Positions 2,142 through 58,275 of a stretch of 64,000 bases of DNA are shown piece by piece. Below the pieces are notes generated by a model. That model ran no database searches. It was not told where the DNA came from and worked only from the letters and a program-made list of their open reading frames with translations. Source of the stretch: an uncultured Gammaproteobacteria bacterium (GTDB lineage Bacteria; Patescibacteriota; Patescibacteriia; 2-01-FULL-39-33); contig CAZLFP010000001.1 in NCBI GenBank assembly GCA_964558935.1, positions 147,260 through 211,259 of the forward strand, in the 5' to 3' direction. A program made the translations under genes and the position numbers. How positions within the stretch are numbered: the stretch's first letter is position 1; each line of letters opens with the position of its first letter.

Positions 2142-3311
2142 TTATTTTATAATGTCAATTCTCTTGCGCATGCTTTTGGTTCTGGCCCGATTGGAAAAAC
2201 GATGTGCTTCATCTCTAATTTGTAACAGGAGTGGTTTGATACTCTGAACCAAAACTTTAATACTCGTCTTGGTTTTACCGGGATAGACCAATTTATCTTC
2301 TGCGTATTTAGACAAGCCCACCAAAGGAATGCTTAAGTTTCTGTCTTGAAACAGTTGATTGAGATAATCAATTTGCGGTTTGCCGCCATCGATTAAGATT
2401 AAATCAGGCCTGGGCCATTCCGGATGATTAAATCTACGCGTTAGCATTTCAGCCAAAGCTCTGAGATCATCATGCTTGGGAGCGGATTTTATTTTAAACA
2501 GCCGATACTGACTTTTATCTGGCTTGCCGTTAGTCATAACCGCCATTGCTCCATAAGTATCCTGACCGGTCAAGTGAGAAATATCATAGGCTTCGATTCT
2601 GGATACTCCTTTCGTGGATTCTATCTCATCTTGAGTCAACAGGGTAACTTCCTGAATCTTCTCAAAAGCTTCGGCCTGTTCCGGATTTTCTGTCTTAAGC
2701 CTGGTCATTAACCTTTTCTTCTGACCCGCAAACAACATAATGATATTATGAATATTTTTCTGATATTCTTTTTCATCTATTTCACCTATGCATGTTCCCG
2801 GACATAAACCAATTTGGTAATCGAAACAAGCTTTCCCTTGATTAGGTGTGCAAGTGCTGTATGGAAAGATTCTTCTGATTATTTTAAGGGCATTTTTGAT
2901 CAAATATTGATTTTGAAAAGGTCCAAAAATTTTATTTTTAGAGACGGGGAATTTTTTCAACTCATGACCTCTGATCAGAATGGGATAACTAAACTTAGTT
3001 AGCGGAAAAACCAAATAGACAAATGACTTATCGTCTTTATCTCGAATATTGTACTTAGGCCAATGTTCTTTAATCTTTCGAGCTTCCAGTAGGATGGCTT
3101 CCAGTACCGTATCCGTAGTCTGGTACTTAATGTCTTTGGCCTGTTCTACCATTTCCGCAATTCTGGGATCTAAGTCTTTTCTAAAATATTGAGCCACTCT
3201 CTTCCTTAGGTTAGTCGCTCTGCCAATGTAAAGAATCTGCTTATTTATATCTAAGAATCTGTAAACTCCCGGTTGATTGGGAAAATCTTTGATTTTGTGT
3301 TTCAAATCCAT
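2142..3311 (-). CDS. uvrC: excinuclease ABC subunit C (UvrC), short form without C-terminal HhH domain
   Basis: GIY-YIG N-terminus (GVYRFLD...ILYIGRATNLRKRVAQYF) and a C-terminal RNase H-like UvrC endonuclease motif (DLILIDGGKPQ). Only 389 aa against about 600 for typical UvrC. Confidence 0.8.
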   Translation of the reverse strand: MDLKHKIKDFPNQPGVYRFLDINKQILYIGRATNLRKRVAQYFRKDLDPRIAEMVEQAKDIKYQTTDTVLEAILLEARKIKEHWPKYNIRDKDDKSFVYLVFPLTKFSYPILIRGHELKKFPVSKNKIFGPFQNQYLIKNALKIIRRIFPYSTCTPNQGKACFDYQIGLCPGTCIGEIDEKEYQKNIHNIIMLFAGQKKRLMTRLKTENPEQAEAFEKIQEVTLLTQDEIESTKGVSRIEAYDISHLTGQDTYGAMAVMTNGKPDKSQYRLFKIKSAPKHDDLRALAEMLTRRFNHPEWPRPDLILIDGGKPQIDYLNQLFQDRNLSIPLVGLSKYAEDKLVYPGKTKTSIKVLVQSIKPLLLQIRDEAHRFSNRARTKSMRKRIDIIK

Positions 3312-5903: not shown

Positions 5904-5972
5904 ACTCTTGATTCTTTAAAAAATATATGATATAACTTTAGTATTGTTGAGTCAACCAGAGGAGGAAAAAAC

Positions 5973-6143
5973 ATGACTGAGCAATTGGAAGTACCTGAGG
6001 CCAAAAACACGCCTCTACCCAGGAGAGTTTGCATCACCGGTGGCATCTGTAAACACGGACACGAACTGCCAACCGAGTGCGATGGCGACTGCATGCTGGG
6101 TGCAGATAAACTGCCTCAGCCAGTGGCTGGTCAGCCCAACTAA
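5973..6143 (+). CDS. small Cys/His-containing protein (56 aa), unknown function
   Basis: SD GGAGGA lies 7 nt upstream of the ATG. The ORF MTEQLEVPEAKNTPLPRRVCITGGICKHGHELPTECDGDCMLGADKLPQPVAGQPN is locally GC-rich and is followed by two hairpin terminators. Confidence 0.35.
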   Translation: MTEQLEVPEAKNTPLPRRVCITGGICKHGHELPTECDGDCMLGADKLPQPVAGQPN

Positions 6144-6155
6144 CTCCCTCTGCTC

Positions 6156-6230
6156 CTAGATTAGTGCAACGCTAATCTAGAGCTTCCCTCCAAACCCGCC
6201 GATCTTTTCTATCGGCGGGTCATTTTTATT
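6156..6230. terminator. tandem hairpins (ctagattag-N7-ctaatctag and cccgccgat-N7-atcggcggg) followed by a T-run; terminates the small + gene and may act bidirectionally for uvrB
   Basis: Two perfect 9-bp inverted repeats; the second is followed by TCATTTTTATT. Confidence 0.6.
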
Positions 6231-41360: not shown

Positions 41361-41876
41361 TTATTGTTTGCTTTCTTTAATGGCATTTAAAGCATAGACC
41401 AGATTTCTTAAGTTGCCTTGCAAAACATTGACCATTCCAGACAACGGAGCCGCAATAGAACCAACAGCTTTAGCTATTAATTCATCTCTACCCGGTAATT
41501 TAGCTAAAGCTACAACCTGATCTTTTTCAATTAGCTTGCCTTCTAAAATACCACCTAAAATCTGCATATTCTCATGGCCTTTGGCAAATTCTGCAATTAA
41601 TTTAGCCGGAGTCACTTCATCTCCCAGACCAATAACAGTGGCAACCTCACCTTCAAAATTCTTGGCTTCCAAGCCTTTTTCAGCTAAAGCTTTCTTTAAC
41701 AAGGTTTTTTTGGTTACTTCATACTTAACATCTTCCTTCTTACAATCCTGTCTTAATCCGTCAATTTCCTTAACCGGAATACCGGAGAAATTAACAAAGA
41801 CAGCAGACTTCATATTGTCCAGCTTGTCAATTAAATTCTGTAAAACACTGTGTTTTTGAGCTTTGGTTTTAGGCAT
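41361..41876 (-). CDS. rplJ: 50S ribosomal protein L10
   Basis: Typical L10 N-terminus (MPKTKAQKHSVLQNL...AVFVNFSGIPVKEI); located upstream of rplL. Confidence 0.9.
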   Translation of the reverse strand: MPKTKAQKHSVLQNLIDKLDNMKSAVFVNFSGIPVKEIDGLRQDCKKEDVKYEVTKKTLLKKALAEKGLEAKNFEGEVATVIGLGDEVTPAKLIAEFAKGHENMQILGGILEGKLIEKDQVVALAKLPGRDELIAKAVGSIAAPLSGMVNVLQGNLRNLVYALNAIKESKQ

Positions 41877-41893
41877 ATATTTGTGTGATTTAA

Positions 41894-41918
41894 TAAAAAA
41901 ACTGCGGTTGATCCGCAG
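41894..41918 (-). terminator. leader attenuator hairpin with U7 immediately upstream of the rplJ start
   Basis: Minus-strand CTGCGG-AUCAA-CCGCAG followed by UUUUUUU; lies between the promoter and the rplJ ATG. Confidence 0.55.
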
Positions 41919-42022
41919 ATTACATGACTAAAGATAGTCAGAGAATATTCCTAGGCAGGGTTTTGTTTAAATTAAGCCAATTATGGCCCCCACGGTCTGC
42001 GGATGTCTTAAGTTATATTGGT

Positions 42023-42052
42023 ATTGTATACTATTTGAGAAGATTTGTCAAT
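42023..42052 (-). promoter_or_regulatory. sigma70 promoter for the rplJ-rplL operon (TTGACA-18-TACAAT)
   Basis: Minus-strand TTGACAaatcttctcaaatagtaTACAAT. Confidence 0.55.
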
Positions 42053-42064
42053 ATTTAATGGTAT

Positions 42065-42613
42065 CTAAACCTCCCCCTCCTTAAAAGTAATGGTTTCGTA
42101 TTTAAAAAACTCTGTCTCATTATTTTCCAAACAACTCTCATCCAAACCGGCTTTTTGACACAAAGAGGATAAAAACTCTCCTTTTTTTGGTAAATCTTTC
42201 CAAACTTCCGGTAAATAAGTGGCAGAATCCGTGCCTTGTTTTATAACAACCCCGTCTCCCGGCTTAATCTCCTTCAAATCCACTTTCTCCAATTCAGACA
42301 GAATGGAAACTTGAATCTTAATCTCTTTTAATTCTTCCTGTGTCAAAGGCGTAAATCTGGGATCCCTAGCTGCCAACAGCACATTATCTCGTATGGCTAA
42401 CATAACTGACTCTTCAGCTTGCAAAGAGCCAATACAGCCTCTTAACTGTTTGCCATGATACAAAGTTACAAACACTCCCCTTTTCTCCCATAACTTCTGG
42501 TTGACAGTTTGAGGTTCATATCTTTCCCGTTGAATTAACTGCATTTCCAAAGCAGTCCTGGCTACTTTGAGCAGGTATTCTTTTTCTCCTCGGGTGTAAT
42601 ATTTTTTATCCAT
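42065..42613 (-). CDS. AMMECR1-domain protein
   Basis: Motif LRGCIGS and AMMECR1 fold signature. Confidence 0.8.
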   Translation of the reverse strand: MDKKYYTRGEKEYLLKVARTALEMQLIQRERYEPQTVNQKLWEKRGVFVTLYHGKQLRGCIGSLQAEESVMLAIRDNVLLAARDPRFTPLTQEELKEIKIQVSILSELEKVDLKEIKPGDGVVIKQGTDSATYLPEVWKDLPKKGEFLSSLCQKAGLDESCLENNETEFFKYETITFKEGEV

Positions 42614-43621
42614 TTAATCTAAATATTTGGCAATATTGGCTTGATGTTCTTCATAAGTTCGACCGTAGATCAGATCACCCTCATCGTTGCTGATAAAATA
42701 ATAATAATTGTTTTGAGTTGGATAAACCGCAGCTAAAATAGCCACTTCACCCGGATTGGAAATGGGTCCGGGTGTTAAACCAGCATATTTGTAGGTATTA
42801 TACGGCGAATCCACTTCTAGATCAGCATAGGAGGGTCTCAGCTCACTCTTGCCGGTCACATAATTTACCGTCGCATCTGACTGCAGAGGAATGCCTTCAG
42901 CAATTCTCTTCTTGAAAATATCCGCAATCATGCGCTTGTCATCGTCTTTTAACGCTTCTCTTTCCACAATCGAAGCTAAAACAATGGTGTCGTAGATGGT
43001 ACTACCCTGGTTCGCAATCTCCTGTTTAACCTCCGGAGTCAATTTTCTATCTAAGTTATCCAACATTTTACGAATAATCTCTTCCACGGTGGCATCTGTA
43101 TATATCCGGTAGGTGTCCGGAAACAAAAACCCTTCTATCGTATCCGCTGGAATATTTGCTAAAAAAGCATACTCCGCTGTCCACAGATCAGTTGCAATAG
43201 CCTTTAAAAACTCTTCCTGAGTGACCAGTCTTTGAGATTCCAAATATTCACCTATCTGCTTGGCTGTCCAGCCTTCAATTACCGTAATCTGCTTCTCATT
43301 GTCGATCGCTTTACCAGTTATTAAAGTATCCGCAATTTCTTTTAAGCTCATGTCAGGACTTAATTTATACTCTCCGGCTAGCAACTTGGATTGAGCCCCC
43401 TGGTACCAGACATACCACTTAAATAAATTAGCAGAAGTGATTAACTGCTGTTGGTGCAAATTTTTAGCTATGGTTTTGACAGACGAACCTGTCTCCACTT
43501 CAAAATAGATTAAAGTAGGCTGGTCGCTAACTGAAGAATTTACACCGCTAAAAAAATAAACGGCTAGCACGACACTCACCACCGCCAAAACCGTGATTAT
43601 TAACCTAATTTTTCTCAACAT
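42614..43621 (-). CDS. mltG: endolytic murein transglycosylase MltG (YceG family)
   Basis: N-terminal TM anchor and YceG motifs (EGFLFPDTYRI, VASIVEREA). Confidence 0.85.
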   Translation of the reverse strand: MLRKIRLIITVLAVVSVVLAVYFFSGVNSSVSDQPTLIYFEVETGSSVKTIAKNLHQQQLITSANLFKWYVWYQGAQSKLLAGEYKLSPDMSLKEIADTLITGKAIDNEKQITVIEGWTAKQIGEYLESQRLVTQEEFLKAIATDLWTAEYAFLANIPADTIEGFLFPDTYRIYTDATVEEIIRKMLDNLDRKLTPEVKQEIANQGSTIYDTIVLASIVEREALKDDDKRMIADIFKKRIAEGIPLQSDATVNYVTGKSELRPSYADLEVDSPYNTYKYAGLTPGPISNPGEVAILAAVYPTQNNYYYFISNDEGDLIYGRTYEEHQANIAKYLD

Positions 43622-54917: not shown

Positions 54918-56081
54918 TTAATCTCTAGCTTGTTTAGATATATTAACTAAAATTCCGGAAGCTGCCAAGCACATCATGAGTGAAGTACCGCCGTAGGAAA
55001 TAAATGGCAAAGGCACGCCGGTTAAAGGCAGAATACCGATAATCGCTCCGATGTTTAAAAAAGCTTGAACCACAAACCAAGTGACAATGCCAATCGCTAG
55101 TAATCTGCCGAACGGATCACTGATATGATTGGCCATTTTAAAAACTCGCAGAGCCAGCATGACAAAAGCAATTACTACAGCCACACACATAAAAAAACCC
55201 AGTTCCTCACCCACCACAGCAAAAATGGAATCTCCGGCCACTTCCGGCAAATAGGCAAACTTCTGACGACTGTGCCCATATCCCCTGCCTAAAATACCTC
55301 CGGAACCTACCGCCAACAAAGCCTGGTTAATGTGGTAACCAATACCCTGAGGATCCAACTCCGGATGCAAGAAAGTTGTTAAACGAGCCGCCCGATACGG
55401 GGAGGTTTTAATCAGTAACCATAAACCACCCAAACCCGCAATCGACAACCAAGTCAAATGAAGCAAAGAACCGCCAGCCACAAAAAAAACAATCAACGAA
55501 GTAATGACAATAATACTCATGGTACCAAAGTCTGGCTGTAGAATTATTAAAACCATAATTATTAGAAGTACAAAAACAAAAGGTAAAAAACCGGCTTTCA
55601 AATCCTTTAATTTTTTTTCGCCTCTGGCAGACAGCCAAGCTACTAAGTAAATTAAGAAAGTGATCTTAACAATCTCTGAAGGCTGGAGAGAAAAACCAAA
55701 AAAGTTAATCCACGAATGAGCTGTTCCATACTCTGCTCCAATACCGGGTATGAAAACTAAAACGAGTAAAACAATGGTAGCAATTAAAAAAGGAGCAGCC
55801 AATTCCTTGAGTCGGTAATAGTCTAATCTAGAAAACAAGACAAAAAGAACAAAGCCCGGAATTAAACCAAAGATAATCTGATGCTTAACATGAAAATAAC
55901 TGTCTCCAAAGTTCTTAAAACCAGAAGCCACACCGGCTGAAGACAGCATAATTAAGCCAAATAAGACTAAAAAACCGATCAGACCAATTAGGTACCAATC
56001 CGGCTGTTTATCCTTTTGTCCGCGAATAATATCTCGGAAAAATTCCTTGATTTGAAACTTATCCAGTATTTTCTTTACCAC
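54918..56081 (-). CDS. ftsW: SEDS-family peptidoglycan glycosyltransferase FtsW/RodA
   Basis: 10 TM helices and SEDS signature regions; located between murD/murG. Confidence 0.9.
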   Translation of the reverse strand: MVKKILDKFQIKEFFRDIIRGQKDKQPDWYLIGLIGFLVLFGLIMLSSAGVASGFKNFGDSYFHVKHQIIFGLIPGFVLFVLFSRLDYYRLKELAAPFLIATIVLLVLVFIPGIGAEYGTAHSWINFFGFSLQPSEIVKITFLIYLVAWLSARGEKKLKDLKAGFLPFVFVLLIIMVLIILQPDFGTMSIIVITSLIVFFVAGGSLLHLTWLSIAGLGGLWLLIKTSPYRAARLTTFLHPELDPQGIGYHINQALLAVGSGGILGRGYGHSRQKFAYLPEVAGDSIFAVVGEELGFFMCVAVVIAFVMLALRVFKMANHISDPFGRLLAIGIVTWFVVQAFLNIGAIIGILPLTGVPLPFISYGGTSLMMCLAASGILVNISKQARD

Positions 56082-56141
56082 AAAATTTAGCTTATTTTAG
56101 CTATTATTATATATAATACCATATTTATTAAACTTTGGCTA

Positions 56142-56170
56142 TTGACAAATATTCAATAGTATGCTATACT
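56142..56170 (+). promoter_or_regulatory. sigma70 promoter (TTGACA-17-TATACT) driving the GC-rich ncRNA
   Basis: Read directly; predicted TSS about 56177. Confidence 0.6.
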
Positions 56171-56177
56171 TGCAATT

Positions 56178-56773
56178 ATGTTCATCGGTAAAGGAGACCG
56201 GTGGCAAAACCAGGTGAAGTCTGGTTCCTTAATAACCAAAGGACGCCGGACACAATGCCCAATGGGCAAGGAGTATTACTCCATGGCGCATGAACGAGCA
56301 GGTCCGATGACAGCACGGATTAATACCAGCTCGACCACCGTGGGCGACGGCTCCGTCTAGCACGGGGCCTGGATCACAAAGAAATCGAAAGGGACAGGAC
56401 CATGGTTAAGCTCCAAATCTGGGGGCATCGGACTACAAGATTGGCGCATCAAGACATGTAAGATGCATTGACGGATGTTAGCCAATTGAGGGAAACCGGT
56501 GTCCCTGATTCCACCCACCGAAAAAATATGTTCTCTAGGAGGTTTGGCTGGGGGGTCATGACAATCCGCGAAGCTTGAGCCTGTGAGGCAACGCTCGATC
56601 GCGACGAGCAAATGACGCCTGAAAAGCAGAGCCAGGCAGCGGGACAAAACGGCACGCCGACGACCGGCAAACGATTACAGCCGGGGGCGATACAGCCGCT
56701 TCCCTCGCCATTCCTCTAAAATGGGGCATCTTCTAAGCGACGAAACGCCAGAAGCTCTGCCCCTTTCTTTTTT
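56178..56773 (+). ncRNA. rnpB: structured GC-rich RNA, most likely RNase P RNA (rnpB, type A-like, with insertions); the 3-prime end includes an intrinsic terminator at 56723-56773
   Basis: No credible ORF; GC far above flanking DNA; own promoter and double terminator. Segments resemble M1 RNA in the same order: GAAAGGACGCCGGAC...AAUGGGCAAGG (P4 5-prime/J4-5), GGAUCA...GAAAGGG (J11/12-P12), GGUUAAGCUCCA (compare GGUAAACUCCA), GCUUGAGCCUGUGAGG (compare P15 GCUUGAGCCAGUGAGCG) and GACGACCGGCAAACG (compare ACAGAACCCGGCUUAUCG, the P4 3-prime strand). Confidence 0.5.
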
Positions 56774-56798
56774 ACCGAATTAATCTCGGTATTTTTTT
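56774..56798 (+). terminator. second intrinsic terminator after the ncRNA
   Basis: accga-attaatc-tcggt followed by ATTTTTTTAT. Confidence 0.6.
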
Positions 56799-56907
56799 AT
56801 TGCCAAAAAACATACGATCCTCTAATATATAAAACACTGTGGCTGTTGACTTAGACTAGTATTCCGAGAGGTTAGTCCAAGATAGTCTAGCAGTCACAGT
56901 ATTTTTT

Positions 56908-58275
56908 TTACACAGTATATTTCTGACCATATTCCGGAATCACTCCTTCAATGCCTAATTTCTGTTTTAAACCATCCTTAATCATCAAAGCCGGTTCTTC
57001 TTCACCGTGCACCACAAAAACCTGTTTAGGTTTAGGACGAGTCATCATCTTAACCCAATGCAATAATTTGGGCTGGTCAGCGTGAGCAGAATAGGCTCCA
57101 ATGGCATCGATCTTAGCTTTGACTCTCACCTGTTCTCCCAAAATCTTAACCTGTTTGGCTCCGTCAAACAACTTTCTGCCCAAAGAACCATCCACTTGGT
57201 AGCCAATGAAAAGTAATTGATTATTAGGATCATTTAAGTACAACTTCAAATGAAAAGGAATTCGACCTCCCACGCACATACCAGAACCGGCAATAATTAC
57301 CTTGGGTGGCTGTATGCCATTAATTCTTTTAGATTGGCGACTGCTACTGGTAAACTCAAGGCCTGGAAATTGGAAAATATCATCTCCGGCTTGCATTAAT
57401 TTTTGAGATTCTTTATCAAAATAATGTAAATAATCTTGGTAAATTTTAGTCGCCCTAATGGCTAAAGGTGAATCTAAAAAAACCCTGGTATCTGGCACCA
57501 ACCGATTTTCAATTAAATAGTTTAATTCATACAATACTTCTTGAGTTCTTTCCAAAGCAAAAGAAGGGATCATTAAAACTCCTTTCTGGCCTACAGATTG
57601 AATAATCGCTTCTTTTAACATCCTAAGCCTTAATTCAGCTGGCTCATGTATTCTACCGCCATAGGTCGCTTCCATAACCACATAATCTGCACCGTCAATC
57701 ACGCTGGTATCTTTTAACAAAGGAACCGGCGAATTGCCCAAATCACCTGAAAAAACTAATTTCTTCTCTTGGGAGCCATCCTTAATCCAAACTTCAGCTA
57801 TCGCCGAACCTAAGATATGCCCGGCATCTCGTAATTTGAATCTTAGTTTGGAATTAATTTTAATCTGCCGATCATATTTCAAAGGTACAAAGAGATTGAT
57901 CAAATCTCTGACATTTTGACGGGAATAAGGAGCGGGTCGATTCTGACTCTTGGCTTCTTTTTGGGCAATACGCGCTGAATCATACAGCATTAGATATGCA
58001 AAATCTTTAGTTGGCTCAACACAATACACCTTGCCTCTGAAGCCATCTTTATATAACTTGGGCAACCGACCGGCATGATCCATATGAGCATGAGTCAGTA
58101 TGACAAAATCTATTTCCTTGGGATCAAAAGCAAACTCATCCCAATTTCTACTGGCATAAAAATCTCCACCTTGGAAAATCCCACAATCTACCAAAAACTT
58201 AACCGAATCTGTTTCCACTAAGTGGCAAGAGCCAGTCACTTCTTGGCAAGCACCATGAAATGATAATTTAATCAT
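56908..58275 (-). CDS. MBL-fold beta-CASP ribonuclease (RNase J-like), short form
   Basis: HAHMDHAG metallo-beta-lactamase motif, MIKLSFHGACQEVTGSC N-terminus and a beta-CASP region; 455 aa. Confidence 0.7.
   Translation of the reverse strand: MIKLSFHGACQEVTGSCHLVETDSVKFLVDCGIFQGGDFYASRNWDEFAFDPKEIDFVILTHAHMDHAGRLPKLYKDGFRGKVYCVEPTKDFAYLMLYDSARIAQKEAKSQNRPAPYSRQNVRDLINLFVPLKYDRQIKINSKLRFKLRDAGHILGSAIAEVWIKDGSQEKKLVFSGDLGNSPVPLLKDTSVIDGADYVVMEATYGGRIHEPAELRLRMLKEAIIQSVGQKGVLMIPSFALERTQEVLYELNYLIENRLVPDTRVFLDSPLAIRATKIYQDYLHYFDKESQKLMQAGDDIFQFPGLEFTSSSRQSKRINGIQPPKVIIAGSGMCVGGRIPFHLKLYLNDPNNQLLFIGYQVDGSLGRKLFDGAKQVKILGEQVRVKAKIDAIGAYSAHADQPKLLHWVKMMTRPKPKQVFVVHGEEEPALMIKDGLKQKLGIEGVIPEYGQKYTV

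Follow-up and report, generated by a model that had tools for sequence, protein, structure and literature searches.

The DNA described here, hereafter the window, is a stretch of 64,000 nucleotides from an uncultured bacterium placed by the GTDB in the Patescibacteriota (assembly GCA_964558935.1, contig CAZLFP010000001.1, positions 147,260 to 211,259), and the element of interest is a transcription unit inside its division and cell-wall gene cluster. The reading favored in this analysis, with a probability of roughly one half, is that an independent and strongly promoted unit, located between ftsW and a gene for a metallo-beta-lactamase (MBL)/beta-CASP ribonuclease-like protein, makes a stable, multi-domain RNA of ~0.6 kb that fits no described family. 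This unit would represent a fast-evolving, promoter-anchored locus, possibly endowed with a 25-codon open reading frame (ORF), in a layout resembling that of RNAIII of Staphylococcus aureus. The genes of the cluster are read on the minus strand in the order mraY, an L,D-transpeptidase-like gene, an F420-ligase-like gene, murD, the MBL/beta-CASP gene (56908-58275), the RNA unit, ftsW (54918-56081), murG and murC. The unit itself occupies the plus strand, so that its transcription diverges from that of ftsW and converges with that of the MBL/beta-CASP gene. An independent Logan assembly matches the locus over 2797 of 2797 nt with 100% identity, so that the unit is not an assembly artefact.

The limits of the unit are defined by an upstream promoter and a series of downstream terminators. 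The promoter is of the sigma-70 type, with TTGACA at 56142-56147, a 17-nt spacer and TATACT at 56165-56170; it matches the consensus at 11 of 12 positions and possesses a TG-extended -10 element. Only 11 sites match at 11 of 12 positions when both strands of the window (128 kb) are considered. The promoter of the RNA ranks in the top three, and another of these sites precedes the L10 leader and the rplJ operon. The features that frame the unit are the following.

56142..56170, plus strand: sigma-70-type promoter TTGACA-17-TATACT with TG-extended -10 (TGcTATACT); predicted start at about A56178.
56178..56773, plus strand: predicted primary transcript, ~595 nt to terminator 1 and ~620 nt to terminator 2, GC content 0.54.
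56723..56773, plus strand: terminator 1, a hairpin (56723-56763) followed by UUUCUUUUUU; -19.6 kcal/mol, z -3.4.
56773..56798, plus strand: terminator 2, a hairpin (56773-56791) followed by U7.
56836..56909, both strands: third hairpin (56836-56900), which terminates in both directions and also serves the convergent MBL/beta-CASP gene; -27 kcal/mol on the plus strand and -23 on the minus strand, with U8 on the plus strand and a U-rich tail on the minus strand.
56103..56141, minus strand: promoter-like sites of ftsW (9 of 12 matches, one with TG), back-to-back with the promoter of the RNA; relatives can be aligned over the stretch that precedes ftsW.

The promoter and the first two terminators had been described in the same terms by the original prediction, from which the third hairpin was absent. 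The same prediction had seen between them a GC-rich segment of about 600 nt devoid of any convincing ORF, and this is what was found: the GC content lies between 0.51 and 0.585 over 56200-56800 (~0.55), against 0.387 for the window, and these are the highest-GC 300-nt stretches of all 64 kb. The physical features described by the original prediction are thus borne out and lie well beyond chance. As a separate observation, a weak promoter-like sequence (56800-56828, TTGCCA-17-TAATAT) stands ahead of the third, 65-nt hairpin and its U8 tract. One possibility is that this hairpin is an RNA in its own right, ~70 nt long; the other is that it does nothing more than terminate both the MBL gene and the large RNA, from opposite directions.

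The body of the unit does not behave as a coding sequence. Its three-base periodicity gives a z of 0.0, against 3.8-10 in four flanking genes; none of the six ORFs of the region has a Pfam match, and the three candidate ORFs have no NCBIfam match. A gene caller did propose a 60-aa ORF (56178-56360) beginning at the predicted transcript start. When this ORF was compared by HMMER with 1.84 billion representatives, only the ORF itself and two tandem-repeat proteins were retrieved, the latter being judged spurious sums of weak repeats. The segment thus shows none of the marks expected of a protein-coding gene or pseudogene: it has neither codon periodicity, nor a family match, nor a real homologue. 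The sequence is, on the other hand, strongly inclined to fold, in a strand-specific manner: against dinucleotide shuffles, the core of the RNA (56178-56722) reaches a fold z of -4.13/-4.17 on the plus strand, compared with -0.86 for its reverse complement. No other copy of the RNA was found in the 64-kb window, and a scan of the RNA for internal duplication gave a z of 0.7.

The anatomy of the RNA, a purely thermodynamic prediction, comprises 17 helices with a pair probability (P) of at least 0.82. They are arranged in a 5' hairpin followed by four domains, within which a Shine-Dalgarno (SD)-like site and the short ORF are embedded.

56183..56203, plus strand: 5'-proximal hairpin CAUCGGU/ACCGGUG, displaying AAAGGAG in its loop (loop unpaired probability 0.86).
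56219..56268, plus strand: domain 1, two hairpins (56219-56251 and 56256-56268), pair probabilities 0.96-0.99.
56270..56414, plus strand: domain 2, multi-branch, closed by GGAGU/GCUCC and CCAUGG/CCAUGG (closing helices P 0.90-0.91), with an inner helix CGAGC/GCUCG (P 0.98).
56421..56506, plus strand: domain 3, a hairpin of 86 nt whose basal stem GGGGGCAUCGG/CCGGUGUCCCU has 11 bp (P 0.99).
56538..56717, plus strand: domain 4, a 180-nt multi-branch structure closed by GGAGG/CCUCU and UGGC/GCCA (P 0.97-0.99).
56268..56360, plus strand: SD-like AAGGAG (56268-56273), 9-nt spacer, AUG at 56283 and 25-codon ORF (MAHERAGPMTARINTSSTTVGDGSV), stop at 56358-56360.
56336..56383, plus strand: weak 48-nt resemblance to the raiA-hairpin (RF03059; gathering score 43.7), scoring 23.6 bits with E = 0.11.

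An A-rich linker separates domains 3 and 4, and a third SD-like sequence, AGGAGG (56537-56542), is sequestered in the predicted closing helix of domain 4.

The original prediction identified this RNA as rnpB, the RNA of RNase P (type A with insertions), from five segments resembling Escherichia coli M1 RNA. This identification is extremely improbable. The RNA does belong to a fitting size class, and it is, like RNase P RNA (RF00010/RF00011), a large, stand-alone, GC-rich gene with its own promoter and terminators in an AT-rich genome; furthermore, no rnpB is seen elsewhere in the 64-kb window. When the five segments were compared with shuffles, however, using the M1 sequence and its motifs as reference, just one exceeded chance, a 14/15 match to the P15 region (GCTTGAGCCTGTGAG / GCUUGAGCCUGUGAG, 56573-56587, plus strand), which stands outside of any surrounding RNase P context; in RNase P RNA, the P15/L15 element binds the CCA end of the tRNA. 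The two strands of P4, a universally conserved helix, are absent: the best matches in the RNA to CR-I (GAGGAAAGUCCGG) and to CR-V (ACAGAAnCCGGCUUA) both have 4 mismatches, with shuffle P of 0.65 and 0.07 respectively. The J11/12-P12 segment (CR-II/III) has 5 mismatches (P 0.99), the GGUAAACUCCA segment 2 mismatches (P 0.11), and 4% of the shuffles score as high as the entire RNA does in its best local alignment with M1. The RNase P covariance models (bacterial A/B, archaeal, nuclear and type T) gave no match at gathering score in the window, and none at E<=10 with permissive filters over the 1.1 kb of 55900-57000. One of the checks proposed along with the rnpB assignment, an Rfam scan for RNase P, tmRNA, SRP and 6S RNA, was thus run and gave no match for any of them even at this threshold. 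The RNA is also 1.5 times longer than RNase P RNA and is not conserved in relatives: no alignable orthologue was detected, nhmmer found no relative among 94 loci (~20 kb per relative), and the RNAs present at the same site are unalignable and measure 100-400 nt, some being far too short for RNase P, which is not expected of an essential and conserved ribozyme. As a positive control, 28 related loci were scanned with Rfam and no rnpB was found in them; a literature search returned no statement on RNase P in these phyla. Two observations had been named as able to overturn the rnpB assignment. The first, the failure of every RNase P model to match, was indeed made, while the second, an ORF conserved across homologues, was not found. 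The practical outcome is negative but useful: this RNA is not rnpB and should not be annotated so. Sequence analysis, as far as it reaches, supports the fallback of the original prediction, an unannotated large structured RNA in the cell-wall cluster, with the additional possibility of a short translated ORF.

Other known families were considered in the same way. With Rfam 15 at gathering score, the window contains two tRNAs and an L10 leader, none of them in the RNA unit. At E<=10, the region 55900-57000 shows no RNase P, tmRNA, SRP, 6S, group I/II intron, ribozyme or large non-coding RNA family. tmRNA was rejected on this basis and because ARAGORN was negative in 55500-57500, and SRP and 6S RNAs were rejected for want of a covariance match at that threshold. 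The sole sub-threshold match is the raiA-hairpin listed above, whose stem and part of both flanks fit the 48-nt stretch; with a score below gathering, and in an RNA outside of the raiA gene context, this resemblance was treated as chance. RNAs of the CsrB/RsmZ type are protein sponges carrying many GGA/ANGGA motifs. The RNA of the window is, like them, a stand-alone molecule with a promoter and a terminator, unalignable between genera and with one AAGGA-type motif in a hairpin loop, but it is not enriched in the relevant motifs. GGA occurs 13 times against 12.7 expected and ANGGA 7 times against 3.6 (P = 0.09 and 0.16 over nine units), and a CsrB-type sponge was rejected. The large OLE, GOLLD, ROOL, HEARO and raiA RNAs, discovered through long GC-rich intergenic regions (PMC11109978, PMC8723152), share with it a size of ~0.6 kb, a high GC content on an AT-rich background, a multi-domain predicted fold and independence from the downstream gene. 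They were rejected as well, for no covariance match was found at E<=10, and each of these classes owes its definition to covariation seen in many genomes, when the RNA of the window has no detectable relative.

Relatives of the RNA were sought in a set comprising 80 ftsW loci from GTDB species representatives, supplemented with the closest relatives found in public assemblies through MBL (best 66% identity) and FtsW (best 77%). A search by nhmmer with the 600-nt RNA in 94 related loci (~20 kb per relative) retrieved only an identical copy (L081), and none of the closest relatives by MBL or FtsW carries an alignable RNA. No match was obtained by blastn against phages and plasmids. Degenerate 24-nt probes, obtained by back-translating stop-free stretches from several reading frames of the RNA, yielded no confirmed relative either, with six probes against viral contigs or with eleven usable probes in two scans of JGI metagenomes. 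The RNA is accordingly an orphan in all searches run, which fits no described family and does not by itself establish one. The GC-rich islands that are common ~2-9 kb from ftsW in seven other loci (L012, L014, L015, L017, L046, L009 and L051) are tRNA gene pairs, unrelated to this RNA.

The locus itself, unlike the RNA, is no orphan. In the eight closest relatives (L001, L003, L004, L005, L006, L089, L090 and L093), a unit of the same orientation is found between murD and ftsW, equipped with a terminator and with a promoter of the form TTGACA-17-TGnTAnnnT, and L089, L090 and L093 display the same unit layout as the window. The promoter of the RNA, like the sequence preceding ftsW, can be aligned with its equivalent in L001, L003, L004 and L005, and the promoter of L090 aligns too. 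The bodies of these counterparts measure 100-400 nt, varying four- to six-fold in length, and the RNA of the window is the longest unit with the strongest strand-specific fold signal. No k-mer or Smith-Waterman similarity relates these bodies to the RNA of the window or to each other, with one exception: the units of the two closest relatives (L089, 1-60; L090, ~2655-2700, minus strand of the loci) share a 27-nt hairpin, AACUUGUCCyGUU..AA.CGGGACAGU, and nothing else. The 5' arm of this hairpin can pair alternatively with an upstream GGACAAGU or CAGGAC, making a structural switch possible. Two relatives, L002 and L091, have no such unit and only a gap of 47-59 nt.

A search for motifs shared among six, then nine, of these positional units gave nothing beyond shuffles except SD-like words. 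In this lineage, such words are rare ahead of ordinary genes: of 45 genes in the window, 2 have an SD, and each of six relatives (L001-L006) has 0-1 among 10-15. This scarcity agrees with the report that Parcubacteria have often lost the 16S anti-SD, the motif being detectable in just 48% of their 16S rRNAs (PMC9297842). The units located upstream of ftsW depart from this pattern: they hold 12 SD-like sites for an expectation of 5.5 (P = 0.006), and an AUG follows 4-11 nt downstream in 7 of the 12, compared with 14% elsewhere in the loci (P = 4e-4). Two further SD-AUG modules were found in L089 and L090. The ORFs that follow these modules have 4-41 codons and encode peptides that cannot be aligned. 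The AUG at 56283 in the window is ~105 nt from the predicted transcript start, and the corresponding distance in syntenic units is ~55-120 nt. The L004 peptide was considered as bS21-like from a resemblance by eye, which Pfam did not support, and this candidate was dropped.

Two other stand-alone, SD-led small ORFs were observed in the window. The first (27169-26860, minus strand) combines a 12/12 promoter (TTGACA-17-TGaTATAAT), a CA-rich leader, ACGGAGGT-N6-ATG, a 51-aa ORF (MYTVKGYDAELVEFEGTFDSFMKALKVFRELIMDCTVIMFREEPGTCIHVM) and two terminator hairpins. The second lies in another GC-rich, non-periodic island located between two minus-strand genes (5951-6220). It consists of GAGGAGG-N7-ATG and a Cys-rich 56-aa ORF (MTEQLEVPEAKNTPLPRRVCITGGICKHGHELPTECDGDCMLGADKLPQPVAGQPN; 5973-6143, plus strand), beside a bidirectional terminator, and neither Pfam nor NCBIfam gave a match to it. 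In this genome, initiation led by an SD thus seems to be set aside for a special class of small genes.

Under the favored reading, the unit would be the local version of a promoter-anchored locus situated upstream of ftsW in related Patescibacteria, in which promoter, orientation and terminators would be kept as the transcribed body turns over beyond alignability. The RNA itself would be the main product, protected from rapid decay by its 5' hairpin and its four well-defined domains. Like its positional counterparts, it may carry a short SD-led ORF (25 codons, AUG 56283). The combination of this ORF with a structured RNA would constitute a bifunctional molecule with the layout of RNAIII, namely a 5' third bearing the ORF, a long and structured 3' portion and a neighboring operon transcribed divergently. 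We infer in this way the expression and the stability of the RNA, the translation of its short ORF and any regulatory target that it may have. S. aureus RNAIII is a fast-evolving, multi-hairpin, dual-function RNA of ~0.5 kb which contains a short SD-led ORF and whose neighboring operon is a quorum-sensing system. The RNA of the window is comparable in its size (~0.6 kb), its multiple predicted hairpins, the position of its putative ORF, its promoter placed back-to-back with that of the neighboring operon and its quick sequence evolution; it also possesses its own promoter and terminator, and most of the transcript is predicted to be structured and is non-coding. It differs from RNAIII in having no homology to it, in the putative status of its translation and targets, and in its neighbors, ftsW-murG-murC instead of a quorum-sensing system.

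Several observations weigh against this reading. Both the SD and the AUG of the 25-codon ORF fall inside the helices predicted to close domain 2. The peptide shows no conservation, and codon usage does not set its ORF apart from antisense ORFs. The counterparts are uniform neither in structure (fold z from 0.06 to -3.5) nor in GC richness, so that it may be the promoter and terminators, and not the RNA, that are under selection. No antisense target stands out, the best duplex of the RNA with the 45 initiation regions of the window reaching -41.4 kcal/mol when the best of shuffled RNAs averages -43.1. Lastly, no homologue was found from which covariation could be read, so that the helices are those of the thermodynamic prediction and the function of the RNA is something that we infer.

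A first alternative is that the unit is essentially a small-protein gene, giving the mRNA of a fast-evolving peptide of 25-60 aa in which the GC-rich remainder is an untranslated region without a function of its own. The enrichment of SD-AUG modules in the positional counterparts speaks in favor of such a gene, as do the 60-aa ORF proposed by the gene caller and the two strong-SD small ORFs found elsewhere in this SD-poor genome, one of which (27169-26860) has its own 12/12 promoter and two terminators. This explanation is nevertheless rather doubtful, given that ~360-430 nt of the transcript (60-70%) extend beyond any candidate ORF and hold the best-defined helices, that neither periodicity, nor a homologue, nor a family match was found, that the peptides of the counterparts are unalignable, and that the predicted fold sequesters both the SD and the AUG. 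In a second alternative, divergent transcription itself would matter and not the RNA: a strong promoter back-to-back with that of ftsW and followed by terminators would either insulate ftsW-murG-murC from upstream read-through or boost the ftsW promoter through upstream negative supercoiling. The conservation of promoter, orientation and terminators but not of bodies, the four- to six-fold variation in body length, the differences in GC excess and fold z, and a triple termination that protects the convergent MBL gene are all in line with this possibility. It is unlikely all the same. An irrelevant body under AT-biased mutation should drift to the GC content of the genome or lower, when it stands here at 0.54 against 0.39, and the excess folding of the body is strand-specific. 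Moreover, the unit is missing in L002 and L091 and is thus dispensable for ftsW expression in close relatives.

The last alternative is that of a non-functional remnant, a piece of horizontally acquired GC-rich DNA that decayed and came by chance to lie behind a promoter. Its orphan status in every collection searched and a composition atypical of the genome are compatible with such an origin, which is very unlikely in view of the near-consensus promoter, the three terminators, the strand-specific folding and the absence of any detectable protein remnant in any frame, and because relatives show the same locus architecture.

Other particularities were observed around the unit and elsewhere. The MBL/beta-CASP gene (56908-58275) overlaps the end of murD by 4 nt within the division cluster. 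Its orthologue in the relatives compared (L084, L087) is located elsewhere, near gyrB, and a local rearrangement therefore placed the MBL gene beside the RNA unit. On the other side of the unit, directly upstream of the ftsW start codon (56082-56110), lies a CTAAATTTAG-type palindrome which is kept across L001, L003, L005 and L090 (ATCTAAATTTAGAT in L090) and could be an operator or an SD-independent initiation signal. Further away in the window (41361-43621), AMMECR1 and YceG/MltG genes precede the L10 leader and rplJ instead of rplK-rplA, so that uL1 and uL11 are not at their usual place. In the L022 locus, a SAM riboswitch match (2356-2611, 48.3 bits) spans 256 nt for a 108-position model, and this aptamer therefore seems to carry a large insertion.

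The locus is of interest because a hypervariable, SD-bearing RNA unit keeps its position in the division cluster of an SD-poor lineage. The Patescibacteria have tiny genomes and few regulators, and almost nothing is known of their non-coding RNAs. A 0.6-kb intergenic unit with a top promoter and three terminators, in a compact cluster of a genome of the ~1-Mb class, is a costly feature to keep. A broader proposal, judged rather doubtful, is that Buchananbacteria-like Patescibacteria keep a hypervariable, promoter-anchored RNA locus divergent from ftsW, whose transcripts carry SD-AUG modules and which is expanded here to an ornate 0.6-kb RNA. Such transcripts might then constitute a new class of ribosome-engaging, bifunctional regulatory RNAs tied to cell division and recognizable by their architecture, not by their sequence. 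If the RNA is functional, it would provide a handle on the control of division or translation in these uncultured symbionts. As this locus shows, an RNA gene can keep its place and architecture across relatives and yet be invisible to sequence or covariance searches.

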